Assembly: GCA_964632165.1 (NCBI GenBank) | Contig: CAZWCZ010000001.1 | Span: 77,681 to 141,680, forward strand | Direction: 5' to 3' | DNA: 64,000 bases | DNA from: an uncultured Lachnospiraceae bacterium | Lineage (GTDB): Bacteria; Bacillota; Clostridia; Lachnospirales; Lachnospiraceae | Shown: positions 3,169 to 64,000 of the stretch, in pieces | How positions within the stretch are numbered: position 1 is the stretch's first letter | How the letters are laid out: each line of letters starts with the position of its first letter | The notes under the pieces: model-generated | Seen by the model: the letters and a program-made list of their open reading frames with translations, nothing else | Databases searched by the model: none | Told to the model about the DNA's origin: nothing | Translations under genes and position numbers: made by a program

Positions 3169-3172
3169 TGTT

Positions 3173-33745: not shown

Positions 33746-35476
33746 ATGAATAAAATTAAAGACCCCTATAAAAATTATATTATGAATACCTCTGAGAATC
33801 ATGCTGCTTTGCGCGCGATCCAAGAATTTTTCAGCAATATGGAAAATAAAATTTCCCAAAATACATACCACCATTTTCTTCTCTGCATATTGCGATACTG
33901 TGCCGAACAATTAGCAAAACAATCCGGCATCATCTGTCCTGCTTCCCTTTTAGATGATCTGATCGACAGCAGAAGCTACTCTCACTTTTGTGCTTCCTAT
34001 CCTTCATTGCAAAAGATCCTCTGCACATATTATGAGGAAGAAGATACCCTGGGATACTTCTATTTGTCTTTGAGTGATCTGAAAGAGCGTAAGCGGTCCG
34101 GTTCTTACTATACTCCTTTTTCCATTTCCAAAAAACTGATCTCATCACATCTTTCTGACACTGCTTTAGGAAAAACATGGTTGGATCCTGCCTGTGGTAC
34201 CGGAAGTTTTCTTCTTCAGTTACCAAAAAATATTCCGCTTGATTCCATCTATGGAAATGACATCAATCCTGTGTGCATTGCGATAGCTCGCATCAACCTG
34301 GCAATGAAATACAAAGTCACAACAAAAGAAGATCTTATGACTTTATATCGCAATTTCACTGTATCCGACTTTTTAAATTTGCCCTATCGTTTTTCTTATG
34401 ATATCATTTTAGGAAATCCGCCATGGGGAGCTGCGCTTACTGCCTCGCAAAAAAAGCTGTATCAAAACAGTTTTTCATGCGTCGGGCAGTCGATCGAAAT
34501 ATTTGACCTTTTTATAGAGCAGGCACTGGATCTTCTTTCTGCAGACGGTATCCTCGCCTATATTCTTCCCGAATCGGTTCTTACTGTAAAAGGCCATGCC
34601 CGTGTCCGGAAATTAATTCGCGATACAACAACTGCATTGTCCATAGAATATCTGGGAGATGCCTTTGATCAAGTATACTGTCCCAGTATCCTTCTTGTCC
34701 TGAAGAAAACAACAAAAAAAACTTTCTATGACCATACTTTGGTAATAAAAAGTTCACAGATGTACCGAATTTTGATTTCCCGCAATGACGAAAACGACAC
34801 TTTTTCCTTTTCGCTAACTGACAAAGAATATCTGCTTCTTCAAAAACTCAAGAAAATTCAAAACTGTACCTTTTTGAAAGACAATGCAGACTTTGCACTT
34901 GGCATTGTAACCGGGAATAATGATGCCTTCCTTTTAAACGATAAGCATCCCGATACCGAACCGTTTATTCGTGGATGCGATATTGAAAGATATCACATCC
35001 GCTCTGTCAGCGGCTATTTGAAATTTTCTCCGACACAATTCCAGCAAACCGCACCGGAGAGATTTTACCGGGCAAAAGAAAAACTTGTTTACCGTTTTAT
35101 CAACCGCAAACTGATTTTTGCTTATGACACAAGTGGGCTGTTATCCCTGAACAGCTGTAATGTTTTAATTCCTCATTTAAGCGGACTAAGTATCAAATAT
35201 ATCTTGGCAATACTCAATTCTTCCGTTGCCCAGTATATATTTGAAAAGCAATTTTCTTCTGTAAAGGTTCTCCGTTCGCAATTGGAATTGATCCCGATCC
35301 CGATTGTCGACCAAGCAACCCAGGAAGATTTGCTTCCAATGGTAGATCTGCTCCTTACGCATCCTTCCGACTCTGAGCAATATATGTCTGTCTACCAAAA
35401 GCTGGACGAAAAAATTGCCAAATTGTTTGGCTTAACAAGAGAAGAATACCTTTGGCTGAAAAACCACATTTATTAA
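33746..35476 (+). CDS. N6-adenine DNA methyltransferase, Eco57I/TaqI-like (gamma class) with a TaqI-type C-terminal specificity domain
   Basis: Motif I LDPACGTGSFLL, motif IV ILGNPPWG, and C-terminal LGIVTGNNDAFLL. The likely start is MNKIKDPYKN, after RBS AGGAAAGGG. Confidence 0.85.
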   Translation: MNKIKDPYKNYIMNTSENHAALRAIQEFFSNMENKISQNTYHHFLLCILRYCAEQLAKQSGIICPASLLDDLIDSRSYSHFCASYPSLQKILCTYYEEEDTLGYFYLSLSDLKERKRSGSYYTPFSISKKLISSHLSDTALGKTWLDPACGTGSFLLQLPKNIPLDSIYGNDINPVCIAIARINLAMKYKVTTKEDLMTLYRNFTVSDFLNLPYRFSYDIILGNPPWGAALTASQKKLYQNSFSCVGQSIEIFDLFIEQALDLLSADGILAYILPESVLTVKGHARVRKLIRDTTTALSIEYLGDAFDQVYCPSILLVLKKTTKKTFYDHTLVIKSSQMYRILISRNDENDTFSFSLTDKEYLLLQKLKKIQNCTFLKDNADFALGIVTGNNDAFLLNDKHPDTEPFIRGCDIERYHIRSVSGYLKFSPTQFQQTAPERFYRAKEKLVYRFINRKLIFAYDTSGLLSLNSCNVLIPHLSGLSIKYILAILNSSVAQYIFEKQFSSVKVLRSQLELIPIPIVDQATQEDLLPMVDLLLTHPSDSEQYMSVYQKLDEKIAKLFGLTREEYLWLKNHIY

Positions 35477-38500: not shown

Positions 38501-40172
38501 CACAATAAAGAAATGCATATGGCAATATTTCCGTTACGGTATCCGGTATCGTAACCTCAAGAAGTGTGGTATTGTACACATAATAATTATTCTCATATAA
38601 ATAGTAATGTCCCGCCCCGTTCTTTGTCTCCCGGATATTTTCTCCGACACTTTCTATCTTTCCATTTCCGAGAACGCCGTATTGATAGCTGATCTTACTG
38701 TAATACGTATATGTCGCATACTCATAGCAGTACACATAACTACCATGTGACATATCATATTGATACTTTATTGTTTTCGTGTAAGCAGACCCGGTAATTT
38801 TTTCATCTTCCTCAACAGAATGATATGTTTCCATACTTCCGCCAATTGTTCTTACAATATAACTTTCTTTTCCGCAAAAAATTATTTCCGGGAACGTCAA
38901 TTCCACAATATACTTTATATCTTCACTTTTTACCTCATACTTATTGCTGTCCGTTCCATACGTTTTTGGATGTACATAAACTGCATTTTCTCCATCTGCA
39001 ATAAAATACCAGCTGTTTCCTCTGCTGTCTGTCCCTACAAGATACTTTTCCCCGCGACTGGCTGCTTCATTCTCTTTTATCAGACCCCCTGATGTTTTTC
39101 CCTGATAGGACGCAAGATACATCATACCATCTGAAATTTTCTCCAATGTGTATCCCTCATCAGTAGAATAATAGCGGTGTTCTGCATCTGTTTTTTGATA
39201 AAATTTCGTTGTCACGGCAGTGGGCGTCGGAGTTGGTTCCTCAGGTGCTTTTGTTGCTTCAGGTGTGAGCGTTCCTTCATTTTGTTTCTCTCTATACAGA
39301 AAACTAAGTGTCAACACGCCTTTTCCAAGTTCACCGGATCTTAGGATTCGCGAAAATTCACTTTTTTCTTCTGTGCTTTCCACAATATTTCCATTTTCTG
39401 TGCTAAAACTATATCCCTCATAAGAATACCCGGAAAATGTCTGTGCCTGTTTTATAACGGTTTCTCCATAAAAATATTTCTCCGTGGATATCGAAAGAAT
39501 TTTTCCGCTTTCCGTATCCAACGCCCTTGTTATGACAGTGGTAAAGGAAAGTTGAAGATTTATCTCTCTGTCGTACGAATTCTTTATTGCATTTAATGCC
39601 GCATCAGACCACATTTCTTCCCACTCATCCAATGCAGATTCCATACTCTGATAACAATAATACTCCTTCCCGATATCTGCACCATCCTTTTCTACCCGCA
39701 AAGAACGACTTGCATAAACCTTCAGCTGCCCATTTGTCCGAATCAGTTCTTCCTTTGTATAATTTTCTAATATCCAGGACATCAGCTGTGCCGCATCCAA
39801 TTGCCTCGTTTCCCAGTAAATTCCGTCTGAATCCGGCTCCGTGGTAAGTTCCGGAATACGCGTTGTCTTTAACAGCAACATTCCATTATAATCATCAGCT
39901 GTTAAATACTGCGATGCTCCCTGTGTCTTTACCTTGTGTAAATACCAGTTTCCGGTCTTATAACGGTATGTTGCCGTTTCCTCTGCTTTTTTCTGCTTGA
40001 AAGACAGCTGAAAATCATTATCACTTGTCATTTCATACGACTCAAACGCATATACACGGTAGTCTTTTGTAACAAGAATCAGGGCAATAAAGCACAGTAC
40101 ATATCCAAACAAGTAACCTTTCTTAATAAATAACATTCCATCCGCTGCTGAATTTGCTGGTATCCACTCCAT
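35526..40172 (-). CDS. giant N-terminally anchored surface protein (BspA-type LRR, Listeria-Bacteroides repeats, RCC1-like blades)
   Basis: 1548 aa with TM YLFGYVLCFIALILV. LRR_5-like IPDTVTEILPYAFLYCEALHKI / IGEYAFAYHENLDEIAF. GYIYAGWNDEADGSGNFYEPGTKL and YTVTYHPNEGTG repeats. RCC1-like DGSLWASGHDVWGALGIG. No LPXTG. The start may be Met13 (40136). Confidence 0.75.
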   Translation of the reverse strand: MEWIPANSAADGMLFIKKGYLFGYVLCFIALILVTKDYRVYAFESYEMTSDNDFQLSFKQKKAEETATYRYKTGNWYLHKVKTQGASQYLTADDYNGMLLLKTTRIPELTTEPDSDGIYWETRQLDAAQLMSWILENYTKEELIRTNGQLKVYASRSLRVEKDGADIGKEYYCYQSMESALDEWEEMWSDAALNAIKNSYDREINLQLSFTTVITRALDTESGKILSISTEKYFYGETVIKQAQTFSGYSYEGYSFSTENGNIVESTEEKSEFSRILRSGELGKGVLTLSFLYREKQNEGTLTPEATKAPEEPTPTPTAVTTKFYQKTDAEHRYYSTDEGYTLEKISDGMMYLASYQGKTSGGLIKENEAASRGEKYLVGTDSRGNSWYFIADGENAVYVHPKTYGTDSNKYEVKSEDIKYIVELTFPEIIFCGKESYIVRTIGGSMETYHSVEEDEKITGSAYTKTIKYQYDMSHGSYVYCYEYATYTYYSKISYQYGVLGNGKIESVGENIRETKNGAGHYYLYENNYYVYNTTLLEVTIPDTVTEILPYAFLYCEALHKINGGEYVEKIGESAFRSAVNKNAELSEEWETAEEGQEEKRKIVYYYNGSYSQEKKTLVMQNWEKAVEFSLRLLPPEFSGLVRIGEYAFAYHENLDEIAFTDKTAQIENGAFLGCRLEQIKVPAVTMIGGGEDTLGTKGNVQEKTVIYTEPGAESVIAYGREYSDYYCIKCGYTVTYHPNEGTGNLQTSVSVLEDKSPDIVDGGVIYADFNNGIDSVAAVYFFIDKDGFIFLKKGEKLEKINVQATPEHIYFNDNSVLVFQQADGTLWKMHYQNKTIKVTLLQLLHSPEKIEKIVGSTTGSIGIYYETADGCQYYYWITADGTEKETLKKRAAEEGTIDTTFYYEGYHAGQNKERKAYYWNGTAWKLLSTARYPSETEIKAIWSTGYVTKTYDEYLDEYTESEINVYHAVDGNGNIRTRREGLEEWELTESEISSEVCYAKELYCDHQCSISLIQEENGIIHYMKTNSPDDTLSECQSKTVCFGKAEAKIQKTYALYGSDGEMLFYIELENGAFYWITDSLNMRSPLPEKMNRMAGELVYFEKLVLYHIGEFTTEEDFLSYTIENSAVIGLAKDGSLWASGHDVWGALGIGESVESVTKNNYTTMQNVSNGRKYRDIAVKVTESVSYEEEVFVSGKRDWQSTYALGEDGILYGTGKIGQKGTTLGIHVNSWQAISEVQAVALINHECTVTMSGCIFHTTNKIEEYEADAGYFYSATVLPNLFFQRQGYIYAGWNDEADGSGNFYEPGTKLILTDHLVLYAVWEKKASVQQQKFEITDTTDIAARKILSSGIQALILKKGYHFTYKISLLEGAFADEVESVRILADYFLISAEEAKRKEVCVYYTVISDGEKYCFVRAGSEMDQRNGQSNGIIHLTQKESDACWIGEFSLPTELYVVEKEKQKDFEWYKQRNSISGEEEFFIKEGYLGVRFTIEFETASGMSVEFKQWEETKLYSDMKDAGWNCKAGDVIRYDLGLSSAQDYVVGGVE

Positions 40173-41184
40173 CTTCCGTAATAATTTCTATCCCGTATCG
40201 ATAAGCAAACGCGCCATATCCGATATACGAAACATTCTTCGGAATGACAACTTCTTTTACCTTATTTCTGCTCAACCACTCCGGACTTTCATTCGCAGAA
40301 AATGCCGCCATGCCAATATACCTTAATGTAGAAGGAAGTACTATCCTCGTCAATTCTTCACATCTTAAAAATGCTGCATCTGCAATCCACTCCGTGCCTT
40401 CAGGAATTACAATTTCAGTCAAAGGTGCATTTAAAAAACAAGAATCACCGATCCTTTTTAATGTAGAAGGCAATACAATGGAAGTCAGCTCACTGGTTCC
40501 AAGAAATTCTATTCCGGTAACTCCTTCGCTGATATGTACCTCTTTTATAAAGTTGGCATAGGTTGTCTTGCCCCATGGTTCATATTGTCCTATTTCGCTT
40601 TTCGCTTTTGCCCCTTCCCACATATCTCCCGTTCCATTCACGATCAATGCAGCATCGGAATATTTCACATTTTCTTTTGACCAGAGACTAACTGCAATAT
40701 TCTCCCCGTATTTCCACTCATATTGCAAATACGGATATTGCTCTGTTATATCCTGATACCACTTTTCCCCCGGAAGATCTCCTGCCAAATCGGGTGTCGG
40801 AGTCGGCAATGCTGCCGATGTTTCCGTTACTGCAGGTGTTTCCGTTACCGATGATGTTTCCGTTACCGATGATGTTTCCGTTACCGATGGTGTTTCCGTT
40901 ACCGATGGTATTATCGTCATTGTTGGAGTCGGGACTTCTGTTAGCGTTATGTATGACCTTGGTGCAGATGAAATTTCAGATATTTCTTCCGGTTCTACGC
41001 ATTCGGACAGCACCGGTGTATCTGACATCTGTATACCTGCAGGCAGAGTAATATTTGCATCTTCAGAACACTCATCACGATATGACATCAAAAATACTGC
41101 CGTTCCTGCAATTGCCATGGCAAAGATCACTCCTGCCAGCACTTTTTTCACCATCTTTCTTTCAAATTTCTTCCCTATATACAT
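40123..41184 (-). CDS. N-anchored BspA-type leucine-rich-repeat surface protein with a (S/P)xVTET repeat stalk
   Basis: TM VLAGVIFAMAIAGTAVFL, five VTET hexapeptide repeats, and LRR_5-like LTSIVLPSTLKRIGDSCFLNAPLTEIVIPEGTEWIADAAFLRCEELTRIVLPSTL. Confidence 0.7.
   Translation of the reverse strand: MYIGKKFERKMVKKVLAGVIFAMAIAGTAVFLMSYRDECSEDANITLPAGIQMSDTPVLSECVEPEEISEISSAPRSYITLTEVPTPTMTIIPSVTETPSVTETSSVTETSSVTETPAVTETSAALPTPTPDLAGDLPGEKWYQDITEQYPYLQYEWKYGENIAVSLWSKENVKYSDAALIVNGTGDMWEGAKAKSEIGQYEPWGKTTYANFIKEVHISEGVTGIEFLGTSELTSIVLPSTLKRIGDSCFLNAPLTEIVIPEGTEWIADAAFLRCEELTRIVLPSTLRYIGMAAFSANESPEWLSRNKVKEVVIPKNVSYIGYGAFAYRYGIEIITEDGVDTSKFSSGWNVIY
40820..40909. repeat. 5 x 18-bp tandem repeat (gtttccgttaccgatgrt) encoding the VTET stalk
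   Basis: Units counted by hand at 40820, 40838, 40856, 40874 and 40892. Units 2=3 and 4=5 are identical. Confidence 0.9.
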
Positions 41185-41273: not shown

Positions 41274-41969
41274 TTATTTCGTCAAAAAAACGCTATCTGT
41301 CCGGTCTTTTTTACGTATGTAAACATTTGCATCCATACAATTTTCATAAAACACATCTTCGCCTAGCGGCCAGCCCTGAAACACCACAATCAGCATCGGA
41401 AAACTCAATTTCTGTGAACGATCCGTCAGAAAATACGGAACATAAAATTCATATTCCATACCATATTGTCTTGCGATCCGATTATGTTCACATATCATAT
41501 CCGCAACATTCATTTCCAGATATGTCTGTATGATTTTTCTGTTTTCTTCTTCCTGTCCGGTCAATACATACGGCATCTTTTTGCTCCATGTGCCTGTAGA
41601 TTCCACATGATCGACAGTTTCCTGTGCAGTAAAGAAATATCCTCCGTCTTCTTCCAGCCATACCAGCAACGGAATATGCATCCTGCTCTCTTTTTGCTTT
41701 TCCTCATTCCCTGAAATCCCAATCCGGGTAAACCAAGAAGAGAAAAAAGTTTCCTCCAACAGATAAAGTTTTACCTCCGTCGTTTCTTCCATGACTTCCG
41801 TCATCTTCCATGCCGAGGCATCCACCGCATAGAGCAGGCTTTCCTCCATTCTCCTCTTCTCATCCTTTATTCCCCGATACTGCATTTGTGCAGAAAATAC
41901 CTCCAAAAAACAATAGCCAAACAAAATGAAAAAAAGTAATGCCATATGTCCCTGCTTCACATTTACCAC
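41274..41969 (-). CDS. N-anchored hypothetical protein (candidate minor pilin / assembly factor)
   Basis: 231 aa with TM ALLFFILFGYCFLEVF. Overlaps the upstream gene by 7 nt. Confidence 0.5.
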   Translation of the reverse strand: MVNVKQGHMALLFFILFGYCFLEVFSAQMQYRGIKDEKRRMEESLLYAVDASAWKMTEVMEETTEVKLYLLEETFFSSWFTRIGISGNEEKQKESRMHIPLLVWLEEDGGYFFTAQETVDHVESTGTWSKKMPYVLTGQEEENRKIIQTYLEMNVADMICEHNRIARQYGMEYEFYVPYFLTDRSQKLSFPMLIVVFQGWPLGEDVFYENCMDANVYIRKKDRTDSVFLTK

Positions 41970-42355
41970 CGTATCATTCGATACAATATCACCCTTTTTA
42001 TCGAAGCTTCACTGAAACATATCATAAAAAAGTCCCCTGCTTCAAGCAAAATCCTACCCTCTTCCGCGAGTATGTTTTCCCATTGCGACTGTATCAGAAT
42101 CTCTTCCTTTCTGTATAATCGGAACGAAATTTCGTAAGAAGTACTTACACTCAAGACCTTTTTTCTCCATGTCTCATACTCTTCATAAGAAACACTTTGT
42201 TTTCGCTCCGCCATATCAAAAAAACTTTCCGTTATGTATTCCGCATAATCTAATCTGGTTTCTTCTTTCCAATATTCCGAAAACAGCATCCATGCTCCCA
42301 GCAACAGCAGCATAAATAATATCATATCCAATGTTTCTGAACATATTTTGTACAT
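41963..42355 (-). CDS. N-anchored hypothetical protein
   Basis: 130 aa with TM MILFMLLLLGAWMLF. Abuts the upstream stop with no gap. Confidence 0.5.
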   Translation of the reverse strand: MYKICSETLDMILFMLLLLGAWMLFSEYWKEETRLDYAEYITESFFDMAERKQSVSYEEYETWRKKVLSVSTSYEISFRLYRKEEILIQSQWENILAEEGRILLEAGDFFMICFSEASIKRVILYRMIRW

Positions 42356-42763
42356 CTATTTCTCCCAAAGCAATGCCTTTCCATAATACCGTTTTCCGCA
42401 TACATGGAGACAAACTTCACTTTCCTTCCGAAAACTGTAGATGCCTTCCTCCTGCAATATTTCCTTTATCTCCTGCCAGGAAATAAGATATCGGTACTCT
42501 TTTCCGTTTTCGGTCTGTTCCTTTTGGAATTCTTCCAGAAATATTTCCTCTCCTTCCCCTGTCAGACGCAATCTCTGACAAAATGCAGTATAATCATTTA
42601 AGCTGCAGCACCCTTCACGGCAGATGCTTTCAAAGAAAAGGACGGTCTGTGCCTCTTTCCAGGACGAAAGGAAATACCGGTACTGTGACTGCTTCATACC
42701 TGCCGCCGTTAAAATCAACAGACTTCCAAGTATGATTAAAACGCCTCTTTGCAACTGCCTCAC
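42356..42763 (-). CDS. N-anchored hypothetical protein
   Basis: 135 aa with a GTG start after GAGGAG. TM GVLIILGSLLILTAAG. Confidence 0.5.
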   Translation of the reverse strand: MRQLQRGVLIILGSLLILTAAGMKQSQYRYFLSSWKEAQTVLFFESICREGCCSLNDYTAFCQRLRLTGEGEEIFLEEFQKEQTENGKEYRYLISWQEIKEILQEEGIYSFRKESEVCLHVCGKRYYGKALLWEK

Positions 42764-42769
42764 ACGCTA

Positions 42770-42928
42770 CTCCTCATTCTTTAGCTGAATGGACGGATGC
42801 GAAATCATTCCATTCAATGTCCGATATACACTTAAAACCATTTTTGTCTGCGAAAACAATAGCATTAAGCACAAAGCAAATACTCCTAAAGATACAGCAA
42901 ATAACAGATACTCCTTTCCTGATCTCAT
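42770..42928 (-). CDS. 52-aa Flp-pilin-like small hydrophobic protein (not in the ORF track)
   Basis: Own translation: MRSGKEYLLFAVSLGVFALCLMLLFSQTKMVLSVYRTLNGMISHPSIQLKNEE*. The ATG overlaps the TGA of the upstream gene (ATGA). It fills an otherwise unexplained 160-nt gap. Confidence 0.5.
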
Positions 42929-43383
42929 TTTTTCTGTTCAAAAGAAACCGCTGCAACTTCTCCATTTTCATCAAATTCAAGCTTTGACATAAAGGAAGAT
43001 GACGGATTGATATAGCTTTCCTCATTCGCGCTGTCAGAAATGTCGGTAAGCACCTTAGAATCCGATGCATGAATTTCCGGATATGTATACTCCTGTGCTT
43101 CTTTACTCTTAGAAACCAAATATCCGTTCTTGACTTTTATGCTGATGCCGTCTTCTTCCGTTAAAGTTTTGATAAGATCAATGATCTGGCTGCCTTTGAC
43201 TGTTGTATCATCATAGACCTTCAATTTTGCATTACTAAAACCGGATACAATATCATCATAATCCTTTAATGAACTGTTAATACTTGCATTCCCTTTTTTA
43301 TAAATAGTTACCGCCACAAAACAAACTGCTACTACAAGCAGAATCCCAACTGCACTTTTAATAAAATTCTTTGACTCACTCAT
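42925..43383 (-). CDS. N-anchored hypothetical protein (pseudopilin-like; paralog of 43386..43805)
   Basis: MSESKNFIKSAVGILLVVAVCFVAV aligns with MNVSKEFLMEAVGLSLLVALLMLGV. RBS AAAGGAGAA upstream. Confidence 0.5.
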   Translation of the reverse strand: MSESKNFIKSAVGILLVVAVCFVAVTIYKKGNASINSSLKDYDDIVSGFSNAKLKVYDDTTVKGSQIIDLIKTLTEEDGISIKVKNGYLVSKSKEAQEYTYPEIHASDSKVLTDISDSANEESYINPSSSFMSKLEFDENGEVAAVSFEQKK

Positions 43384-43385
43384 AT

Positions 43386-43805
43386 TCAATTCTCCTTTTC
43401 TTTCATTCTGATATACTCTACATTTTTGTTTTCTCCCCGTACTACATGGCACTCATATTCCTGAAATACACTCATGCCAAATTCTGAGGTATCCTCTCGA
43501 AGCATTGCTGCTTCTTTTCCTGTTTTTACTTCATATGTATTTCCCGATGTTTCAATCCGCACAGGAAGTGCATACTGATCTACCATTGCCTTGATATAAC
43601 TGATCGCCGTAATCCCATCCACTGTTTGTCCGTCATACTGTACAATTTCGTACTCCTGCATTCTCGTAAGTGTCTCTTCCTGTCGTTCCGCCATATAATT
43701 CATCAGTCCGGATGCACTTTGGAACATCTTAACTCCCAGCATTAAAAGTGCTACAAGCAAAGACAATCCTACCGCTTCCATTAAAAATTCTTTACTTACA
43801 TTCAT
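43386..43805 (-). CDS. N-anchored hypothetical protein (pseudopilin-like)
   Basis: 139 aa with a short polar leader and then a hydrophobic helix. Confidence 0.5.
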   Translation of the reverse strand: MNVSKEFLMEAVGLSLLVALLMLGVKMFQSASGLMNYMAERQEETLTRMQEYEIVQYDGQTVDGITAISYIKAMVDQYALPVRIETSGNTYEVKTGKEAAMLREDTSEFGMSVFQEYECHVVRGENKNVEYIRMKEKEN

Positions 43806-43812
43806 TTTGTTT

Positions 43813-45402
43813 CTACATCCTCATTTCTTCCAAAATCCGAAATACTTCTGAAACTCCCTGCAGCGATGTAAGAAGAAACGGCAGAATAAAATATGCCGAC
43901 AATGCCAATGCTGATGGTATTTTGGACAACAGATCCATGCCGTCTTTTTTTTGTTCTATTTTAATTTCAGCTTCCATTTGTGACATTTTTTCCATCATTC
44001 TTCTATTGTTCTCAACTTCTGCAAATGCTTTTCGAATGCCGACTTCGTCTACCGCAAGAAACCCCTCTGCCAATTCACGAAATCCTTCATGCAATGCTCC
44101 CGCCTCTTCTCGTAACCGTCTTAATGCTTTTTCCGGTCCGGCCGCATAAGAATTAATGCAAATCCTCAGTTCTCTCCTAAACAAACGGCTGAAAATCTCC
44201 ATATCTTCCAAAAGTTCCGGAATCGTTGCATCTGCCATTCTCCGTTCCATAAGAACAACTGACTGAAATTGTCTGATCTCATACTCTGCCTGCTGAAGCA
44301 GAAGTTTTCTCCGGTACCATAGTTTCACAACAGGTGCTGCAAATGCAACTCCTCCACACACAACAGAAACCAGAAAAATCATTCCATAATTCCTTATACC
44401 GATATACAAAAGAAACATGTTCATTCCAACAAACACTGTTGCCATATAAAAGATCATACGAAGCAGAAAATTTCCGTACGTATCCCTTGTATCTGTCTGG
44501 AGCAACAACTTCCGTATCCATTCACTAAACCGGTTCTCCTGTTTTTCAAGCTGCTCTTCCATCCGCATTTTGGAGAAAAACTTCTTTTCTGCATTTTGTT
44601 CCCGAAAAAAATATATTTCTTTCGCATTATTGATAAACGAATATACAGCGTAAGATACCAGCAGCGTTATCACCTCTATGATTTTCCCAATCCCACCATA
44701 AAAAGCAGCCAGGTCAGGTTCAAACTCCAATCCCCACTGTCGAAGAATCGGCATGGCATAAAATGGTGCAAGTGATACAAAGGTATAGCCTGAAAATTCA
44801 TGACTTCTTTTTTTTCTGCGATAAATTTCTTCCATCACGATCAGCCGCAAATGTTCCAGATTCTCAGAAAAAAGGGAAGAATCTTCCGATATTTTAATGT
44901 CTCCTTTTTCTGATGTTTCAAACGCCTGCACTAAAAACAATTTCAAATACTGATTGTACTTTGTATACAATATATAATTGCGTACCTGCTCTCTTCTGTC
45001 ACTCTCCGACAGAATACGATACAGTCTGGAAGCATGAAGGCGTAATTCTTCACCGGTTTCCTCTGCCGCATCTTTAATGGCATTAGCCACATTTTGCTCT
45101 GACATATAAAAATGTTTTACCCTGGAAAGAAACGACAGCATCTCTTTGTATATCCTATACTCTGTCTTTTGAATACGGCTTCCGGAAATTTCCGTATATA
45201 CAATATAAAGAGTAAACACAAGACCTCCTGAAAAGTACAGAGCCGAAGGGATCCCCAGAAGCATATTCCACCAAAAGAAAGCGAGTAAGGCAACGGATCC
45301 CACCACGATTATCCGGCGTTCATCCTCTTCCACCAGTTGATTCAGCCTTTTTTCTCCATATGGGCAAAGATTCTCATACTTTTTTGCAAGTCGGGATATC
45401 AT
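43813..45402 (-). CDS. polytopic membrane protein with two-repeat TadB/TadC (T2SS-F-like) architecture
   Basis: The pattern [TM pair - about 150-aa helical cytoplasmic domain - TMs] occurs twice. The ATG overlaps the ATPase stop. The position immediately after the ATPase matches tadA-tadB-tadC order. Confidence 0.5.
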   Translation of the reverse strand: MISRLAKKYENLCPYGEKRLNQLVEEDERRIIVVGSVALLAFFWWNMLLGIPSALYFSGGLVFTLYIVYTEISGSRIQKTEYRIYKEMLSFLSRVKHFYMSEQNVANAIKDAAEETGEELRLHASRLYRILSESDRREQVRNYILYTKYNQYLKLFLVQAFETSEKGDIKISEDSSLFSENLEHLRLIVMEEIYRRKKRSHEFSGYTFVSLAPFYAMPILRQWGLEFEPDLAAFYGGIGKIIEVITLLVSYAVYSFINNAKEIYFFREQNAEKKFFSKMRMEEQLEKQENRFSEWIRKLLLQTDTRDTYGNFLLRMIFYMATVFVGMNMFLLYIGIRNYGMIFLVSVVCGGVAFAAPVVKLWYRRKLLLQQAEYEIRQFQSVVLMERRMADATIPELLEDMEIFSRLFRRELRICINSYAAGPEKALRRLREEAGALHEGFRELAEGFLAVDEVGIRKAFAEVENNRRMMEKMSQMEAEIKIEQKKDGMDLLSKIPSALALSAYFILPFLLTSLQGVSEVFRILEEMRM

Positions 45403-47006
45403 GCTTTGCTCCCCTCCCATCCAAAAAACAGTGCAAAGGAACGAAACTCTTCCGGTCCGAGTTCATCTTCTGCACGCAAAAAAGTTGCCTTGCTTGGTAT
45501 CCCAACAAGTTTCCCTTTTTGCTCCTTCTCATCAAATCGATAGATTTCCCGGATTTCATACGGTTTCTCCCTTCCTGATACTTTCTGCCTCGGAACAACC
45601 TCATGGATATACTGCACATATCGTTTTCCAAACCGGTTTCGAAGATGAATGTCAAATCCAAGACCGGCAGCAGCATCCTGCATTGCAAGCTCTTCCTTCG
45701 CATAACCACCGATACACAGTTTTGCATTCACAAAATCCGTTACCATCTGTTCTGTTGTAATATAATGTGCCGAAAAAAACAGTTGCGTTGCAATTTTTGA
45801 AATATCCATTGCCAGGATCGCAACCGAAGCGGAATTGATCTCTCCGATCGCAAATATCTGTCCTGTCGTCTTTCTTGCAAATGCCAATACATCTTCCGCA
45901 GGTGTTGCCTGTGAAATACGCATCGTCATTGTATTTCTTTCCGGAAGAAAGCTCCGCACATTCAGTTCAAACGACTCCGACTCTATGACCCTTAAATTTC
46001 TTTCCCTTTTTGTTTCCTTTAAACATGCCCGGAACAATGTCGTTTTCCCTGATGCCATTTCTCCGGTGATCGCTATGTTCCTTCCGCTTTGCACTAACCA
46101 TCGGATCAGCTCAGCAAGAAAGCTTTTCCCCTCTTTTCCCGGATAAAGGCTGTCCAGTGTCACTCCGGAAACGGCATCAAATTTTCGTATCAACCCGACC
46201 CACACGTCTGTGACCGGCGGTCGCGATACGGAAACTCTTCTTCCATCTGCCGTATCTACCACAATCATCGGATGATTCTGTGTCAACTCTCCCGCCCGTG
46301 CGTCCCGTATCAGATTACGAAGTACTCTTGTGAGTTCCTCTTCCGTACCGAAACTTAAAAATTTAAGCCATACCATCTTCCCTCGGATCAGTACATGGAT
46401 TCCATCCCAGTCATAAAATTTTTCATTTTCTTCCTTCACTAACAGTTCCCGGTAACTATATGCTTTGATCGCATATCCATTCATTCCAAGCTGTATTTCT
46501 TCAATACATCCTTTCTGCTGATTGATACTGTCGATTGTACCCAGCCCTACAGTATCCGCAAACAGCAGCTGTGATAACACCTGGATCCGATCTTCCGGGT
46601 CAAGCTTTAACTCACGTGCAATAAATTCTCTGCGAAGCATTTCCTCAGTCACAACGACATGCTCCTGTCCCTCTCCAAATCCCGCATGTTCCCAAAATTG
46701 AAAGAATCCGTATTCTTCCTTTATCCGGTCTCCTGCATAGATCAGGACTTCAAACATCTGTTGTCCGGTCAGAAGTTCCGGATAATCTGTCGGCAACAGA
46801 TTTTTGATCTCTTTTTCTGTCAGTCCCAGTTCCCGTACTAAATAAGATCGAATCAGTTCCTTTACTGCTTCCTTTGCTCCGTAATTCCCCGAGCAGCAGG
46901 TACGGATGCTTTTAGACAGCATTCTCCGATACTCTTCCTGATTCCGGTATTCTCCCTCGCTTAATCCGGCATCTGCAATCGGCATTTCCGTATATTCGTT
47001 CAGCAT
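45399..47006 (-). CDS. CpaF/TadA-like type II/IV secretion-family ATPase (divergent)
   Basis: GLIRKFD, Walker A ITGEMASGKTT, RVIESESFEL (Asp-box position) and IFAIGEINS (Walker B position). The ORF is open to 47168, but that would overlap the upstream gene by 140 nt, so Met55 with RBS AAGGAAAG was chosen. Confidence 0.7.
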   Translation of the reverse strand: MLNEYTEMPIADAGLSEGEYRNQEEYRRMLSKSIRTCCSGNYGAKEAVKELIRSYLVRELGLTEKEIKNLLPTDYPELLTGQQMFEVLIYAGDRIKEEYGFFQFWEHAGFGEGQEHVVVTEEMLRREFIARELKLDPEDRIQVLSQLLFADTVGLGTIDSINQQKGCIEEIQLGMNGYAIKAYSYRELLVKEENEKFYDWDGIHVLIRGKMVWLKFLSFGTEEELTRVLRNLIRDARAGELTQNHPMIVVDTADGRRVSVSRPPVTDVWVGLIRKFDAVSGVTLDSLYPGKEGKSFLAELIRWLVQSGRNIAITGEMASGKTTLFRACLKETKRERNLRVIESESFELNVRSFLPERNTMTMRISQATPAEDVLAFARKTTGQIFAIGEINSASVAILAMDISKIATQLFFSAHYITTEQMVTDFVNAKLCIGGYAKEELAMQDAAAGLGFDIHLRNRFGKRYVQYIHEVVPRQKVSGREKPYEIREIYRFDEKEQKGKLVGIPSKATFLRAEDELGPEEFRSFALFFGWEGSKA

Positions 47007-47028
47007 GTGATATATTCTTTCCTTTAAT

Positions 47029-47838
47029 TCAGGATAGGAATACTCTTTCCTCGATTTTTTCTGCTGCCTTCCCGACAGACTCCATAAATTCATAATTTTC
47101 TTCCTTTTTTCCCACTCTTTCATTTTTGAAAAGAAATTCTGCACATCTTCCTTCAGCCAGTGCATCACGAAATCCGACGTTGCACGGGATCACTCCAACG
47201 ACTGTTTCCTCTTTACCAAGATACCTGCTTTCATATTGTTTCATGCCGTATTTGGACGACTTTAGATACTCTCCGAATAAAATCCCAACCTTTTTCCCGC
47301 ACAACATATCACGATTTTTACTGTATGCCTCCCATGCCCATGGATTTTGCGGAAGTACTACGATAACAACATCCGCCTGTTTCAGACAACCTTCGTTCTG
47401 TTTTTGATATCCGCTCCCGGCATCCAGACAGACCAGATCATACTCTTTTGCCAAATGTGCTTTTATGACATACTGTTCCAGTTCCGTTGTATTTCCGCCA
47501 TGTACTGTATTTTCTCTACATCCAAGTCCCGGAAACAATGCAGCCGACGTAAATGGAACGGATAATGCACAGCGCCTTACGGATGCTTTTGTCAGCATTC
47601 CCTGCTTACAGGCAAGAATCAATGCTGCCATCCCGCTGCGTGCATAAACTTCTTTTCGGGTCTCCAGCTTATACTTTGCATCCAACCCCTGTTCCAATGC
47701 CCATCCCTCTGCTGCCGAAGAAACTGCCATCTCTGTCTGCGGATATTTTTTGCCAAGCATGGCGACTACTGCACACATTGACGAACTTACCTTTGCCTGT
47801 CCTTTGACCGGAGACCAGAATGCCAGGATTTTTCCCAT
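47029..47838 (-). CDS. ParA/MinD-fold protein with a degenerate Walker A (TadZ/CpaE-like position), copy C
   Basis: ILAFWSPVKGQAKVSSS replaces KGGxGK(T/S). DLVCLDAGSG ... ADVVIVVLPQN is MinD-like. Confidence 0.45.
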   Translation of the reverse strand: MGKILAFWSPVKGQAKVSSSMCAVVAMLGKKYPQTEMAVSSAAEGWALEQGLDAKYKLETRKEVYARSGMAALILACKQGMLTKASVRRCALSVPFTSAALFPGLGCRENTVHGGNTTELEQYVIKAHLAKEYDLVCLDAGSGYQKQNEGCLKQADVVIVVLPQNPWAWEAYSKNRDMLCGKKVGILFGEYLKSSKYGMKQYESRYLGKEETVVGVIPCNVGFRDALAEGRCAEFLFKNERVGKKEENYEFMESVGKAAEKIEERVFLS

Positions 47839-47841
47839 TCC

Positions 47842-48468
47842 TTACCACCTTCCCAATCGTGCTGTCTGATTTTCCGGAATATCCGGAAACAGGAACAAAA
47901 TTAATTGCCGGACGGCCTCTTTCATTTGCGCAGAAAGCCGGCCGATAGGAATATCTCCTGTCTCTCCGAGATGTTCCCGTATCTTTTCGTCCTTTTCCTC
48001 CCATGGAATACATATCGTCTTTTCTGTTTTCTGTTCCGTCAGAAGTTCCAGATATTGCTGCGTATGTACTGATTCCCAGAAATTTCTGATCAGCAGGTAC
48101 TGTCTCCGCTCCCACTGCCCTATTTTCGAAAGCAAAGCCGCATGTACCGGAAGTCCGTCCGTGGCAAGTATCAGATGTCCGCATTCATACAGCCTTGGAT
48201 GCAAAACACGGTATCCAAAATCCAGAAATACAACATCATACGCTTCCTTCCGTACCGCAGCATCCGTAAGTACAATTCCGCGGTATATGGTTTCCTCCCA
48301 TTCTCCTGTCTTTAGAACATTATCCTTTGCTTCCATGATTCCAAGTAATATCTTGTGTTCTGTTCGATCTTCTATCGCCACCTTCTTTCCTGACTTCATC
48401 AGGCAGAATGCCAGATAAAGCAACACATCTTCACATTCATAACCGGCAAAGCCTACTGTGATTGACAT
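47842..48468 (-). CDS. ParA/MinD-fold-like protein lacking a P-loop, copy B
   Basis: MSITVGFAGYECEDVLLYLAFCLMKSGKKVAIEDRT ... YDVVFLDFG ... HLILATD follows a MinD-like strand pattern but has no GKT/S. Confidence 0.4.
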   Translation of the reverse strand: MSITVGFAGYECEDVLLYLAFCLMKSGKKVAIEDRTEHKILLGIMEAKDNVLKTGEWEETIYRGIVLTDAAVRKEAYDVVFLDFGYRVLHPRLYECGHLILATDGLPVHAALLSKIGQWERRQYLLIRNFWESVHTQQYLELLTEQKTEKTICIPWEEKDEKIREHLGETGDIPIGRLSAQMKEAVRQLILFLFPDIPENQTARLGRW

Positions 48469-49199
48469 TTTCCTTCTCCATCCCCTCCTAAAAAAATAGT
48501 CATGCCCCAATGTTCTGCAACAGGCGGTCGGATTGCCGTAATCTTTATCCCATCCGGCCGCTCCCACTGCCATATAGGAGCATTTTGGGTAAGTTCTCCC
48601 TGTTTTTCATTTTGGATGATGACGCGGATGACTCTCTCCTCTTCCTCAAAGGACACGTTTAGAAATGGGAAAGAATATACCATATTACCTTTTTTCAATT
48701 TTATACGGCTCTCTGAATTTTCCTGTCCGGATTCCTTTGCACATTCTCCAAATAAGATCGCATCACCTCCCAGTCTGAGCAAATTTTCCACAAGTCCTGC
48801 TCCCCTCCTTTTCAGCAGCCGTTTTACGAAGAAATTCTGTTTTTCCTCCCAGGATAAAGGCATCCCTTTTCTCCTGTTCATAAGGTACACTCTGTCCACG
48901 TCCTGCTCTGTAAAAACTGTCTTCCCCTCAGCTCCAAGTTCATTCAGAAGACAATACCCCATACCCGTCTGCCTGTCTCTCTGCTTCATGTATAACAACA
49001 GATCCAATTTTTGTTCCGCCGTCAGATATCCTGACTGTTCAAACGGAAACAGCTTTGCTTCCATCACCTCCTCCGTTATTCCCTCTTTTTTGAATAAGAT
49101 CCTTGATATTGCTTCTTCTTTTTCCTCTTCCGTCATGTAAACTCCGTTTTCATCAGACAGGTTCCCTTCCAATAATTTTTCTGCCAGACTTTCTCCCAA
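48453..49199 (-). CDS. stand-alone paralog of the CpaF-like ATPase N-terminal domain (no ATPase core)
   Basis: IIQNEKQGELTQNAPIWQWERPDGIKITAIRPPVAEHW aligns with LIRDARAGELTQNHPMIVVDTADGRRVSVSRPPVTDVW of 45399..47006. The ORF ends where the P-loop domain would begin. Confidence 0.55.
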   Translation of the reverse strand: MGESLAEKLLEGNLSDENGVYMTEEEKEEAISRILFKKEGITEEVMEAKLFPFEQSGYLTAEQKLDLLLYMKQRDRQTGMGYCLLNELGAEGKTVFTEQDVDRVYLMNRRKGMPLSWEEKQNFFVKRLLKRRGAGLVENLLRLGGDAILFGECAKESGQENSESRIKLKKGNMVYSFPFLNVSFEEEERVIRVIIQNEKQGELTQNAPIWQWERPDGIKITAIRPPVAEHWGMTIFLGGDGEGKCQSQ

Positions 49200-49210
49200 A
49201 ATCGTATATG

Positions 49211-49975
49211 CTACCTTTTGTTTTTTTCTTGCCTTGATTCTAATTCCCGCCTTTTTGTCACCTCCTTTTCCCTTTCTAACATTTTAAGTACAATTTCATC
49301 CGGAAGATATGCGACCGGACTTTTTTCCTGTCTCTGTTCTTCCGGGTACTTAACAAGATACAACTCTGTGTCCCGATATGTATCACAGTCATAACGCGCA
49401 GAAGAAAGCAACAATATTTCTTCTTCGCTCAGTCTTAAAACGATCCCCGTCTTTTTTTCACACCGAACAAGTACTTTCTCTGCCAAAACAACATAATCTT
49501 CCGCATTTGCAAAAGAGATTCTGACATCCACCCGGTTTCCTTCTTTTAAATACTCCGGTATATCCACTTCCGTGATCAGCACTTCCCTCAGATTTTCCTC
49601 TTCTTCTGTCAGATCTTTTTTTCGGATACAGCTTCCTTCTGTTACCGGTGCAAGCAGCACCTTTCCAAAATCTTCTTCCGTCATATATAAAATACTTTCT
49701 TCATCTGAGTAACGAAGCATCCGTCTTACTTTTTCCGATGTAACAGTATCTCCGGCTTCTAAATTTTCCCCTGCGACAAATAAGTATTTTTCATAACTCT
49801 CTAACTCTTTTAAAAGTTCTTTTCGCTCCTCGTCTGCGTTCTTAAAACTCTTTATGGCAATTCCTGTTCCTGCCATCCCAGCCACTGTCATAAAAACCAA
49901 TAATCCTATGCGTGCCCTTTTCCGCCTTTTTTGACTTTGATGATTCATACTCCTCCTTATCTTGTTCTGCAGCAA
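49211..49975 (-). CDS. CpaB/RcpC-like SAF-domain protein, N-anchored
   Basis: TM RIGLLVFMTVAGMAGTGIAI, SAF-like VAGENLEAGDTVTSEKV, and EGNRVDVRISF...VVLAEKVLV (compare CpaB pGdrVDVl). Start at Met1 or Met10 (49948). Confidence 0.55.
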   Translation of the reverse strand: MLQNKIRRSMNHQSQKRRKRARIGLLVFMTVAGMAGTGIAIKSFKNADEERKELLKELESYEKYLFVAGENLEAGDTVTSEKVRRMLRYSDEESILYMTEEDFGKVLLAPVTEGSCIRKKDLTEEEENLREVLITEVDIPEYLKEGNRVDVRISFANAEDYVVLAEKVLVRCEKKTGIVLRLSEEEILLLSSARYDCDTYRDTELYLVKYPEEQRQEKSPVAYLPDEIVLKMLEREKEVTKRRELESRQEKNKR

Positions 49976-50696
49976 GCAGCAATTCTGCCGCTCTCCTGAT
50001 ATTTCTGCAAAAGTACTTTTCTCCTTCCTCCGGCTCTTGAAAAAAGCGTTCTACATCGCCGTTTTCACACGCCATGTCAAATTTTCTGCACTTCGGAAGA
50101 ACTCCTAGTCGTTTCTTTTCAATTCCGTAAATTCTGTGAAGATAATGGGGATTGCACTTTTCTTCGCTATGATAATCCGTGATAAAAAATACTGATTTTG
50201 GAATAATGGATGAATAATGATGAAAGAATTTTCGAATTTCCATTGTATTCTGCGGTAAAAAAACAGCAACCACGTCTGCCTCTTCCAATGCCTGTAAAGA
50301 AAAGGCATTGATTTTCCCTGAAATATCCATAAAATAAAGAGTTTCCCTTGAAATATTGCGGTAAAACATCAGATGTTCCAATCCGTCCGTCGGCTGAACC
50401 AGGCGGATTCCGACAGACGTTGTAATATCACCTGCCCTCCGGTCTTCTGAGATTTTCATTTCCCATAATTTTCTGAAGTACCCCGGTTCGCCATAGGGAT
50501 GGCATTTTTGCGCCCGTTCTATTCCGCTTCTGGACGGATCATAGAAAAAATAGTCCTCTAAACCTTGTCCGCCAAGATAATTGCAGCCTGCTATTACACA
50601 TTTTTCAAAATACAGAGTGCAGTACACGCTGATGGCTGCAAGATAACCGGTCACCTTACCGGCATTATCCGTTCCATCCCAAAACGCTACTTTCAT
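49842..50696 (-). CDS. ParA/MinD-fold-like protein with a degenerate P-loop, copy A (first gene of the operon)
   Basis: MKVAFWDGTDNAGKVTGYLAAISV ... ADVVAVFLPQN parallels copy C. Confidence 0.4.
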   Translation of the reverse strand: MKVAFWDGTDNAGKVTGYLAAISVYCTLYFEKCVIAGCNYLGGQGLEDYFFYDPSRSGIERAQKCHPYGEPGYFRKLWEMKISEDRRAGDITTSVGIRLVQPTDGLEHLMFYRNISRETLYFMDISGKINAFSLQALEEADVVAVFLPQNTMEIRKFFHHYSSIIPKSVFFITDYHSEEKCNPHYLHRIYGIEKKRLGVLPKCRKFDMACENGDVERFFQEPEEGEKYFCRNIRRAAELLLAAEQDKEEYESSKSKKAEKGTHRIIGFYDSGWDGRNRNCHKEF

Positions 50697-62476: not shown

Positions 62477-62489
62477 TCTGCGTACTAAA

Positions 62490-62520
62490 AAGGCTGCCTT
62501 TCTCATTCATAGGCAGCCTT
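62490..62520. terminator. bidirectional terminator
   Basis: aaggctgcc ... ggcagcctt hairpin with flanking A/T runs. It overlaps the last codons of the sigK fragment. Confidence 0.6.
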
Positions 62521-62871
62521 TAATTTTTGCAATGCTTTCTTTTCTATTCTGGAGACATAACTTCGTGAAATGTGCAGTTTCTCTGCAATTTCCCTCTGCG
62601 TAGTTTCCGGATTTCCGTTCAGTCCAAACCGAAGTACAAGTATCTCCTGTTCTCTTTCTGTCAGTATATGTTCCATGTAGCTTTGCAGTTTTTCTAAACT
62701 CATTTCTTCTTCAATCTGTTCCAAAATGTCCGCATCTTCTGCAATACAGACATCCAGCAGTCGGATGGTATTCCCGTCTTTATCTGCCCCGATCGGGTCA
62801 TACAGATACACTTCCTTTGACTGCTTTTTATTTCCACGAAACACCATCAGAAGTTCATTTGCTATCCTCAC
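62503..62871 (-). CDS. sigK: 3' segment of sporulation sigma factor SigK (spoIIIC-equivalent; regions 3-4 only)
   Basis: [40 protein letters not shown]...[27 protein letters not shown] matches B. subtilis SigK [38 protein letters not shown]...[24 protein letters not shown]. There is no region 2 and no ATG. Confidence 0.8.
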   Translation of the reverse strand: [122 protein letters not shown]

Positions 62872-64000
62872 ATAGCGGACTTTCGGATTCTGCCGTTTCT
62901 TCGGTCATTGCGGGCGGGTTGGGGAATTCATAATCCCCATCATTATGGAACAGGTACACATGAGCATTTTCGCCGTCCCACACGATTTTACGGATAAAGG
63001 TTCTGATGGCGGCACGTTTTTGTTCAACACTATATTCCTCTATATTCTCACCCATTGTAGAAAGCAACTGACGGATAATATCAAATTCGATTTCCGCAAG
63101 GTCGTGCTGTTGCATAATCGCTTCAAGCTCGGCAAGACGTTTTTTCAAACCCTCGCCCTTTTCGTGCAGTTCGTCAATTTGCTCCATGATATATTTCTCG
63201 GCATTTGTACCTTCCGTTTTTCCGAGTGAAAGAACGAGAGCCTTAATATCTTTTTCGTTTTCCTCAATCTGTGATTTAATCTTTGCAACCTCTGCATCGT
63301 AGCCCTCACGATTACCGTTGATACGCTTCTTTGTTTGCGTAATCTGCTTTGCCATATCTGAGCTTTGCTTGCCGAAGCTCTTCACCGTGGCAATGATTTT
63401 CGCATCAAGCATATTGCCGTTGGCGTTCTTCATATCGCACACGTGACCACGGCTACGCTCTTTAGTGGTACAGAGATAGGTATAAATAGGTTCACCCGTT
63501 GCGGTCAGACGGTCTGACAGCTTCGGACGCATATAATCACCGCATTTTCCACAATAGAGAATTCCCGACAAAAGTGCAACATTACTGCGAGGCTTACGGT
63601 AGCTCTTAGATTTGTTTAGCTCCAACTGTTTTTGTACCTGCACCCACATAGCACCGGGGATAACGCCTTTATGTTTACCAACAGAAACAATCCATTCATT
63701 CATAGGCTTTTCCTGCGTTGCTTTTCCGGGTCGTTGTAATGTGCGGTTATACGCCATAATGCCGTGCTTGCCGTCAAATGCTTCTTTATCGGAGAAAAGG
63801 TCAACATCGTTTTGGGTGAGATAGTTATAGGCGTCATCATCTGCAATCATATAAACGGGGTTAGAAAGAATACCCTTGATGGCAAAACGGGTAAAGGTTT
63901 TTCCACGCTTGGTTTTATAATGCCCCTGCATAAGAAATTGGTCTGTTTTGGTAAGCGAGCCTGTTTCGATAAATTTATCGAAAATCAGCTTTACCAAATT
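62855..64000 (-). CDS. large serine recombinase (SpoIVCA-like), N-terminus beyond the window
   Basis: Recombinase domain, zinc ribbon YCGKCGDYM...LCTTKERSRGHVC, and coiled coil. The catalytic resolvase domain lies beyond base 64000. Confidence 0.85.
   Translation of the reverse strand, partial: NLVKLIFDKFIETGSLTKTDQFLMQGHYKTKRGKTFTRFAIKGILSNPVYMIADDDAYNYLTQNDVDLFSDKEAFDGKHGIMAYNRTLQRPGKATQEKPMNEWIVSVGKHKGVIPGAMWVQVQKQLELNKSKSYRKPRSNVALLSGILYCGKCGDYMRPKLSDRLTATGEPIYTYLCTTKERSRGHVCDMKNANGNMLDAKIIATVKSFGKQSSDMAKQITQTKKRINGNREGYDAEVAKIKSQIEENEKDIKALVLSLGKTEGTNAEKYIMEQIDELHEKGEGLKKRLAELEAIMQQHDLAEIEFDIIRQLLSTMGENIEEYSVEQKRAAIRTFIRKIVWDGENAHVYLFHNDGDYEFPNPPAMTEETAESESPLCEDSK
62858..64000 (-). mobile_element. 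end of a skin-like intervening element inserted in sigK (extends beyond the window)
   Basis: SigK homology stops abruptly around 62865..62875, exactly where the recombinase gene ends. The sequence to the right looks more GC-rich by eye. Confidence 0.65.

Follow-up and report, generated by a model that had tools for sequence, protein, structure and literature searches.

A sigK gene split by a probable skin-like integrative element in an uncultured Lachnospiraceae bacterium, and the family of sigK-associated serine recombinases to which the element belongs

Introduction

Several described elements interrupt sigK, the gene of the late sporulation sigma factor SigK. For the skin element of Bacillus subtilis, the insertion site was reported as AATGA (PMC10745906). 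In Clostridioides difficile, SigK is made without a pro-sequence, and excision of the element needs the recombinase as well as the directionality factor CD1234 (PMC5025042). In the systems studied so far, excision was described to need a directionality factor and to be confined to the mother cell (PMC5025042, PMC6957869, and PMC4191935). Galperin et al. analyzed 15 skin elements ranging between 2.6 and 48 kb, which had no cargo in common and were bordered by a spoIVCA-type recombinase gene, 'usually immediately upstream of spoIIIC' (preprint 10.1101/2022.02.25.481979). Here, a locus of this kind is presented for an uncultured Lachnospiraceae bacterium. The analyzed stretch of 64,000 nucleotides (GenBank assembly GCA_964632165.1, contig CAZWCZ010000001.1, positions 77,681 to 141,680; referred to as the window in the following) ends within an element that interrupts sigK and carries a large serine recombinase (LSR) gene at its edge. 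Coordinates are window positions unless a contig is named.

Interruption of sigK at a single base

The sigK gene in the window is split, with a precise boundary as compared to an intact sigK and with the recombinase gene located at the element edge beside the sigK fragment. At 62860|62861, the 3' part of sigK directly abuts the 3' end of the LSR gene. Considering this arrangement, the window very probably ends in attR, the right junction, of a sigK-intervening, skin-like integrative element (Table 1).

The boundary was determined by means of an empty attachment (att) site. Contig L001 (10.6 kb), originating from a near-identical strain, carries an uninterrupted sigK encoding the protein P0001 of 206 amino acids (aa). 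Aligned to window positions 62860-52822, it showed 99.96% identity over 10,040 bp, i.e., approximately four differing bases in 10 kb, and the same gene order (sigK, AI-2E transporter, GtrA, AI-2E, NA37, PspC, ArgRS, and enolase). Upstream of 62860, L001 continues into the sigK 5' half (...GCC TCC AGA TGT ATT GAA AAT GAA CTT...), whereas the window reads ...CTA TGT GAG GAT AGC AAA TGA ACT T... at the same place. Identity begins at the AAA of AAATGAAC, corresponding to window position 62860, within the codons for C-I-E-N-E. P0001 passes both curated SigK cut-offs (309.5 vs. 252 and 302.6 vs. 298.65), its match starting at model position 24-26. Since its GTG start is preceded by an in-frame stop at a distance of 13 codons and no alternative start is located in between, the L001-type SigK has no pro-sequence. 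Independent empty sites were detected in the gut-metagenome runs X1 and X4, where contigs of strains with 95-99% identity cross 62860 into the sigK 5' half. The first-pass annotation, made from the window sequence alone, had reported an interrupted sigK and proposed that comparison with an intact-sigK relative would define the crossover core; the interruption is supported, as an intact, model-passing sigK occupies the same locus of the 99.96%-identical strain and the two sequences part at one base, and L001 fixes the junction to the base.

The sigK fragment is encoded by the open reading frame (ORF) 62503..62871 on the minus strand. Its product matched positions 109-226/227 of two NCBIfam SigK models (E 3e-45 and 3e-43), with scores far exceeding those for SigE and all other sigma models; they are below the whole-protein SigK cut-offs, because half of the protein is missing. 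Pfam Sigma70_r4 was present and Sigma70_r2 absent, in agreement with the earlier proposal that the ORF represents SigK regions 3-4 only, and both SigK sequence blocks cited in its support were recovered. The best database match was the intact P0001, with residues 93-206 of which the fragment protein is identical. An in-frame stop is located upstream (62905-62907) as had been described, 11 codons separating it from the GTG of the ORF. Unlike what had been stated, the fragment does contain an ATG, which is internal and encodes the M of ...LLMVFRG. Using full SigK as query, tblastn matched residues 87-206 only, and the N-terminal half of sigK was found nowhere in the window, as had been expected. 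Exact-protein look-ups with the 122-aa and 114-aa sigK fragments and with the AI-2E transporter matched either nothing or just the empty-site contig.

Two earlier statements on the junction itself required correction. SigK similarity had been assumed to end around 62865..62875, but at the DNA level, the window matches the intact allele up to 62860 and not a base further, and the apparent protein similarity up to approximately 62865 ('IA' vs. 'IE' in SigK) stems from the element's own att arm. Since the recombinase ORF reads across the junction and identity starts at 62860, sigK DNA supplies only its last codon, AAA (62858-62860), and the stop, rather than four to five recombinase codons. The GC content showed no mark at the junction, being 0.42-0.45 throughout. 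At the other end of the fragment, the hairpin overlapping the sigK stop codon probably acts as a bidirectional terminator, which sigK would share with the convergently oriented AI-2E transporter gene. Overall, the observation made in the first-pass annotation is confirmed as real and far beyond chance, and its interpretation is supported.

Table 1. Features of the sigK locus in the window, and candidate factor genes in related elements.
Feature	Position	Strand	Remark
Perfect 11-bp stem hairpin	62489..62521		Inverted repeat I8; overlaps sigK stop codon
sigK 3' segment (spoIIIC-like)	62503..62860	-	From codon N89 (AAT) of intact 206-aa SigK to stop; regions 3-4
LSR 3' part, 1,146 nt	62855..64000	-	380 codons plus TGA (62855-62857); runs off the window
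Crossover dinucleotide AA, att centre	62858..62859	-	Inferred from symmetry; positions 2-3 of last recombinase codon
Element-side attR arm AAGTCCGCTATGTGAGGATAGCA	62860..62882	-	Doubles as last recombinase codons ...SPLCEDSK
Visible end of intervening element	62861..64000		Identity to empty-site L001 ends at 62860
Candidate factor genes (helix-turn-helix gene by attL; 73-aa ORF)	L101:4150-4767, 5099-5320; L126:1056-1601, 3052-3246		Also in L128, L111, and L017

The recombinase and its clade

The LSR gene had correctly been annotated as ending at the junction: the ORF terminating there with TGA features the domains Recombinase (PF07508; E 4e-16) and Zn_ribbon_recom (PF13408; E 7e-10). Over the 380 residues visible, it shares 90-94% identity with many full-length proteins (573-628 aa), which carry Resolvase (PF00239, motif VIYSRKSKF), Recombinase, and Zn_ribbon_recom domains and end with ...PLGEDS(E/K), followed by variable tails; identity reached 94% with full-length proteins of 576-615 aa. 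The tails differ because the gene reads through, out of frame, into sigK genes that vary from host to host; the hypothesis that the range of lengths (573-628 aa) reflects many target sites was, therefore, rejected.

Compared to the closest relatives, the recombinase showed a dN/dS of approximately 0.04 (dS 0.8-0.9), which indicates, at the level of sequence, that it is under strong purifying selection and functional. This result bears on the possibility that the locus is a decayed remnant, in which the sigK 3' fragment and recombinase persist as leftovers, the 5' half being lost or located on no plausible partner and the host using another sigK or not sporulating at all. The 5' half is indeed neither in the window nor among the database fragments listed. 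However, decay is hardly compatible with a recombinase ORF that is open through all 380 visible codons at such a low dN/dS, an intact and canonical att arm, a 3' half whose protein equals that of the intact allele, and a flank with only about four base differences in 10 kb to the intact strain, so that this explanation is considered very improbable. In annotation, the sigK 3' fragment should be treated as one half of an interrupted, probably functional sigK rather than as a pseudogene, and the organism should not be scored as sigK-less.

To what extent the recombinase is associated with sigK became apparent from its relatives. A scan of metagenome contigs yielded 29 loci with recombinases of 53-92% identity, 26 of which have a sigK 3' half, starting from residue 87, directly after the recombinase gene. 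Among the remaining three, two lack the sigK 3' half, and the sigK match in L121 does not start at residue 87. Likewise, in eight out of nine contigs from the protein index (L002-L010), the sigK 3' half, again beginning with residue 87, comes directly after the recombinase relative, and in L002-L010, L130, and L131, a Sigma70_r4-only gene overlaps the recombinase stop. The relative P0138, occurring in 239 index blocks, was found at a sigK junction in all six contigs fetched. Considering metagenome loci and protein-index contigs together, site specificity was observed across relatives of 49-94% identity. The best match among plasmid records (47.5% identity; Ruminococcus albus pRUMAL01) is not located beside sigK, and specificity is therefore seen only down to approximately 49% identity. 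In phage records (INPHARED), no integrase exceeded 43% identity, and a pattern scan of IMG/VR gave no match to the recombinase. Judging from these sequence comparisons, the whole clade of recombinases keeps to a single sigK site, in many different gut Clostridia.

In the gut runs X1, X2, and X4, pieces of the recombinase gene (window positions 62818-63827) reached a word depth of 100-600x, compared to 3-6x for the host flank; the recombinase family is, accordingly, far more abundant in these runs than the host studied here. A short, well-defined attB/attP pair together with a strongly conserved recombinase may also be of interest to collectors of serine integrases for genome engineering.

Complete relatives and att sites

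Both sigK halves are visible in two relatives of the element. In L101, the recombinase of which is 90% identical to that of the window, the sigK 5' half (3833-4177; ...RCIEN|AILS*) is followed by a 7,009-bp insert and the 3' half, and in L126 (recombinase 53% identical), both halves surround an insert of 5,813 bp. In silico joining at AA restored in-frame SigK proteins of 231 aa (L101) and 209 aa (L126), which score 301.7 and 285.8 bits, respectively, against a SigK cut-off of 252 bits.

The att sites of L101 read TGTATCGAA-AA-TGCTATCCTATCATAACGGCTAC (attL) and GAGCCGTTAGGAGAGGATAGCG-AA-TGAAATT (attR), the arms GAGCCGTTAGGAGAGGATAGCG and TGCTATCCTATCATAACGGCTAC being inverted copies of each other around AA, with 18 out of 22 positions complementary. 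More generally, the attL arms of the relatives (TGCTATCC...TAACGGCT) repeat the attR arms in inverted orientation, and AA is the symmetry centre between the attR arm ...GGATAGC(A/G) and its inverted copy TGCTATCC... in attL of L101 and L017. At every recombinase-sigK junction aligned, the attR arm of the relatives corresponds to (G)CCGTTAGG(A/T)GAGGATAGC(A/G), followed by AA(T/C) GA(A/G) (A/C)T. ... ATG, which encodes N-E-(I/L)-L-M. The arm of the window fits this consensus and occurs only once in the window.

The same attL type was found in L017 and L013, both belonging to species-representative genomes. A scan of the GTDB representative genomes with the SigK N-terminal half gave a best match of 72% identity; many matches represented sigE, and split sigK genes were detected only in L013 and L017. 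In the databases, dozens of N-terminal SigK fragments end with ...RCI(E/D)N|AILS, AMLS, or GILS, including Bacillus-type proteins with a pro-sequence.

Besides the elements proper, several observations were made on the loci retrieved. In the metagenome-assembled genome Bacillota bacterium OH_CFB_136 (L013:10270-20264), the same codon of sigK is interrupted (CIDN|GILS*). Genes for NifH-like and NifD/K-like proteins, a cysteine synthase, and an ABC transporter occupy the first 10 kb of this insert, hence metabolic rather than phage-type functions. In L058, L076, and L015, tblastn revealed another full-length SigK/SigE-like gene, which shares 46-49% identity with the query, at a distance of 7-8 kb from the best sigK match. 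These second copies are located directly upstream of a weaker sigma-factor match and were taken as sigE beside sigG. The attB-like sequence TGYATHGARAAYGAR is also present in the second copies and in weaker full-length matches taken as sigE; among the loci fetched, no interrupted sigE-type copy was found.

The recurrence of the junction is also relevant to the question of whether the window could be an assembly chimera, in which a widespread recombinase gene was mis-joined to sigK at a short shared sequence. A gene with a word depth of 100-600x next to a flank of 3-6x is the type of repeat prone to such errors, and no independent read across this exact junction is available. Nevertheless, the junction architecture recurs base for base in over 30 independent assemblies, which represent many hosts, and two contigs hold both junctions in the expected geometry, making a chimera the least credible of the explanations weighed in this study.

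Spread and cargo of the element family

Comparison of the relatives revealed that the elements move between hosts. The segments L101:7727-11183 and L003:8315-11771, comprising two ORFs, the recombinase gene, and the att arm, are 99.74% identical over 3,457 bp, but sit in different sigK genes (NEILMTMRTTKK vs. NEILMHFRALKK) of two host species. Identity ends approximately 15 bp past the junction, and the upstream breakpoints of identity differ among L003, L004, and L100. A module of 99.74% identity in two host species points to very recent inter-species transfer combined with mosaic cargo. Moreover, the host SigK 3' halves beside the recombinases are only 44-66% identical to that of the window and represent at least 14 distinct sequences, whereas recombinase identities reach up to 94%.

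The cargo differs even within one host species, as seen for L003 vs. L004 and among L092-L099. In L003 (3099-9067), Type III restriction-modification genes occur together with a PDC-S15 (FRG-domain) candidate defence gene, in L130 (1-3451), a Type III restriction enzyme (REase_III) occurs with AbiTii, and L101 encodes a helix-turn-helix (HTH) regulator, DUF6061, a DnaC-like loader, and a RepA_N initiator. No convincing virion genes were found in the cargo of the relatives examined; of the element itself, the window shows only the recombinase. The contigs L092-L099 share the sigK 5' fragment P0261 (100 index blocks) of one abundant species, and the DNA following attL differs between samples: the variants encode MatE with AAA_14, a protein exceeding 2,700 aa, an LRR_5 protein of 1,628 aa, CotH, or a kinase. 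Most of these contigs break right after attL, and the cargo is hypervariable at strain level.

According to these sequence comparisons, the element is one copy of a common, horizontally spreading family and not a private domesticated relic. Such mobility gives weight to the only serious rival of a developmentally excised element, namely an ordinary mobile insertion that uses sigK as attachment site and whose excision, benefiting only its own transfer or loss, is uncoupled from sporulation, carriers being sporulation-defective or leaky until the element is lost. It would agree with the near-identical module in two species with differing sigK 3' halves, the decoupled divergence of recombinases (90-94% identity) and hosts (44-50%), the existence of empty-site strains, a sigma-A-like extended -10 motif upstream of the relatives' recombinase genes, and cargo typical of mobile elements (replication module, restriction-modification, and Abi). 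However, all experimentally studied LSR-bearing sigK inserts, i.e., those of B. subtilis, C. difficile, and Bacillus cereus biovar anthracis, excise in sporulation (PMC4191935, PMC5025042, and PMC10745906). In addition, the element is nearly fixed in at least one abundant species, as represented by P0138 with its 239 index blocks and sigK junctions in six out of six contigs fetched, and a crossover that exactly rejoins the frame inside invariant codons suits a reversible interruption. An insertion uncoupled from development is, therefore, regarded as unlikely, and the skin-like element remains the preferred explanation.

For the family as a whole, it may tentatively be hypothesized, at somewhat less than even chances, that the near-invariant C-I-E-N-E codons of sigK serve a single spreading recombinase lineage as a broad-host landing pad across distant gut Clostridia, making sigK a hotspot for swappable cargo, with the recombinase transcribed from a sigma-A-like promoter and excision timed by a small factor. 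If this proves true, the swappable cargo would comprise restriction-modification, Abi, and candidate defence genes, surface proteins, and metabolic clusters. Judging from the findings on the family, sigK may well be a major hotspot for integration in the gut microbiome.

Predicted excision and its regulation

Large serine recombinases bind to two att sites, bring them together in a synapse, cut both at the central dinucleotide, rotate, and religate the strands. Applied to the locus studied here, integration would have occurred by a serine-recombinase crossover at the central AA within TGT ATT GAA AAT GAA (C-I-E-N-E), leading to the proposed minus-strand order sigK 5' half, attL, cargo, recombinase gene, attR, and sigK 3' half. 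For excision, the recombinase, probably together with an element-encoded directionality factor, would pair attL and attR, cut at AA, and religate. The predicted attB, TGTATTGAAAATGAACTT, would restore TGT ATT GAA AAT GAA CTT, i.e., the sequence of L001, and the in-frame sigK of 206 codons for amino acids, and a circle with the near-palindromic predicted attP ...GAGGATAGCAAATGCTATCC... would be released. A search of IMG/VR for this predicted palindrome yielded one match, a terminator-like hairpin in a phage contig of 266 kb, which was rejected as chance.

By analogy with B. subtilis and C. difficile, excision would take place in the terminal mother cell, and the spore line would keep the element. 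As SigK lacks a pro-sequence, DNA rearrangement could be, as in C. difficile, the main gate on sigma-K activity. The presence of attL and a sigK 5' half in this copy is inferred, and so are the directionality factor and when and in which cell type excision takes place. If correct, uncultured gut Lachnospiraceae-like spore-formers are added to the organisms with a rearrangement-gated late sporulation sigma factor, in this case a SigK without a pro-sequence.

Some indications concerning regulation were obtained from the relatives. Irrespective of the cargo, a stretch of approximately 90 bp that precedes the recombinase start is conserved (L101:9320-9412 and about 20 others), and TTATGTTATAATAC in this region resembles an extended -10 motif; a simple sigma-70 scan upstream of the relatives' recombinase genes called no full -35/-10 pair. 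By analogy, TTATGTTATAATAC would fit the C. difficile pattern of a constitutive recombinase and a regulated accessory factor. An HTH (XRE-type) gene beside attL and a 73-aa ORF without family match are common to elements whose recombinases are only 53% identical. The two genes are candidates for directionality or regulatory factors (Table 1).

Several points weigh against the interpretation of the locus as a skin-like element with regulated excision. The window stops before the sigK 5' half and attL of this copy and before the catalytic N-terminal domain of the recombinase. Moreover, a protein search with the N-terminal half gave no 5' fragment of more than 82% identity among the matches listed; none of those listed was longer than 155 aa, so that a long fragment with a read-through tail may be unlisted and the absence of the 5' half is uninformative. 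Excision itself is predicted by analogy with the systems studied. The conserved TGTTATAAT-like element upstream of the relatives' recombinase start hints at transcription of a vegetative and not a sporulation-specific kind, and the timing, if regulated, must therefore come from another factor. Finally, since the family was transferred recently, intact sigK halves are weak proof of selection for rejoining.

Other features in the window

Apart from the sigK locus, seven consecutive ORFs of 231-589 aa on the minus strand (41277-50696) showed no Pfam match at E<=1e-5. This run adjoins two LRR_5/BspA-like surface proteins (35526-41184) and is also located near an Eco57I/TaqI_C-type N6 DNA methyltransferase gene (33701-35476).

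Comparison with known sigK-intervening elements

The architecture described here, with a recombinase at the edge, usually directly upstream of spoIIIC, and without common cargo, is already known. Modestly new, at the family level, are the association of one recombinase clade with one sigK site, the very recent inter-species transfer, and the defence-type cargo.

The locus resembles the skin element of B. subtilis in its split sigK, the LSR at the element edge, and the overlap of the recombinase 3' end with the junction. Both elements also use the same short sigK site: the window junction AAATGAAC contains AATGA, with the AA lying within GAA-AAT-GAA, and Bacillus-type N-terminal fragments in the databases break at the same codon (e.g., P0276, ...ARCIEN|D). 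In B. subtilis, however, the recombinase gene is located beside the 5' fragment and converges with it (PMC10745906), whereas that of the window lies beside the 3' fragment in the same direction. The comparison of SpoIVCA with the window recombinase covered the att site, which is the same, and the gene layout, which is different. Furthermore, skin is a defective prophage of 48 kb, whereas the relatives of the window element comprise 6-7 kb or more than 10 kb and show no convincing phage structural genes, and the B. subtilis SigK has a cleavable pro-sequence, which that of the window host lacks.

The element skinCd of C. difficile (LSR CD1231) is likewise found in a Clostridia host with a SigK lacking a pro-sequence, features the LSR at its edge, and occurs in a species in which strains with and without the element coexist. 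The logic is likely the same, with the rearrangement as the main sigma-K checkpoint (PMC5025042). The position of insertion in sigK differs from that of the window element (PMC5025042 and PMC6957869), and the closest recombinases from C. difficile plasmids are only approximately 39% identical to the window recombinase.

Among non-phage elements, the 22-kb sigK island IV described for B. cereus biovar anthracis, which encodes restriction-modification and a recombinase and is excised in sporulation (PMC10745906), is similar to the relatives of the window element with their Type III restriction-modification, PDC-S15, and AbiTii cargo. It differs by its insertion at sigK nucleotide 195 and by the recombinase gene beside the 5' fragment. 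The Clostridium perfringens phage PhiS63 and other sigK-integrating temperate phages also integrate into sigK and excise precisely (PMC3442830), but PhiS63 uses the core GTAATGAAAT at nucleotide 427 and is a complete siphovirus.

The pattern of an edge recombinase with varied cargo, as described by Galperin et al., is also present in the window and its relatives. In contrast to their survey, which covered reference genomes, the clade described here was found in many uncultured gut Clostridia, and recombinase modules that are almost identical recur in different species, an indication that horizontal spread continues.

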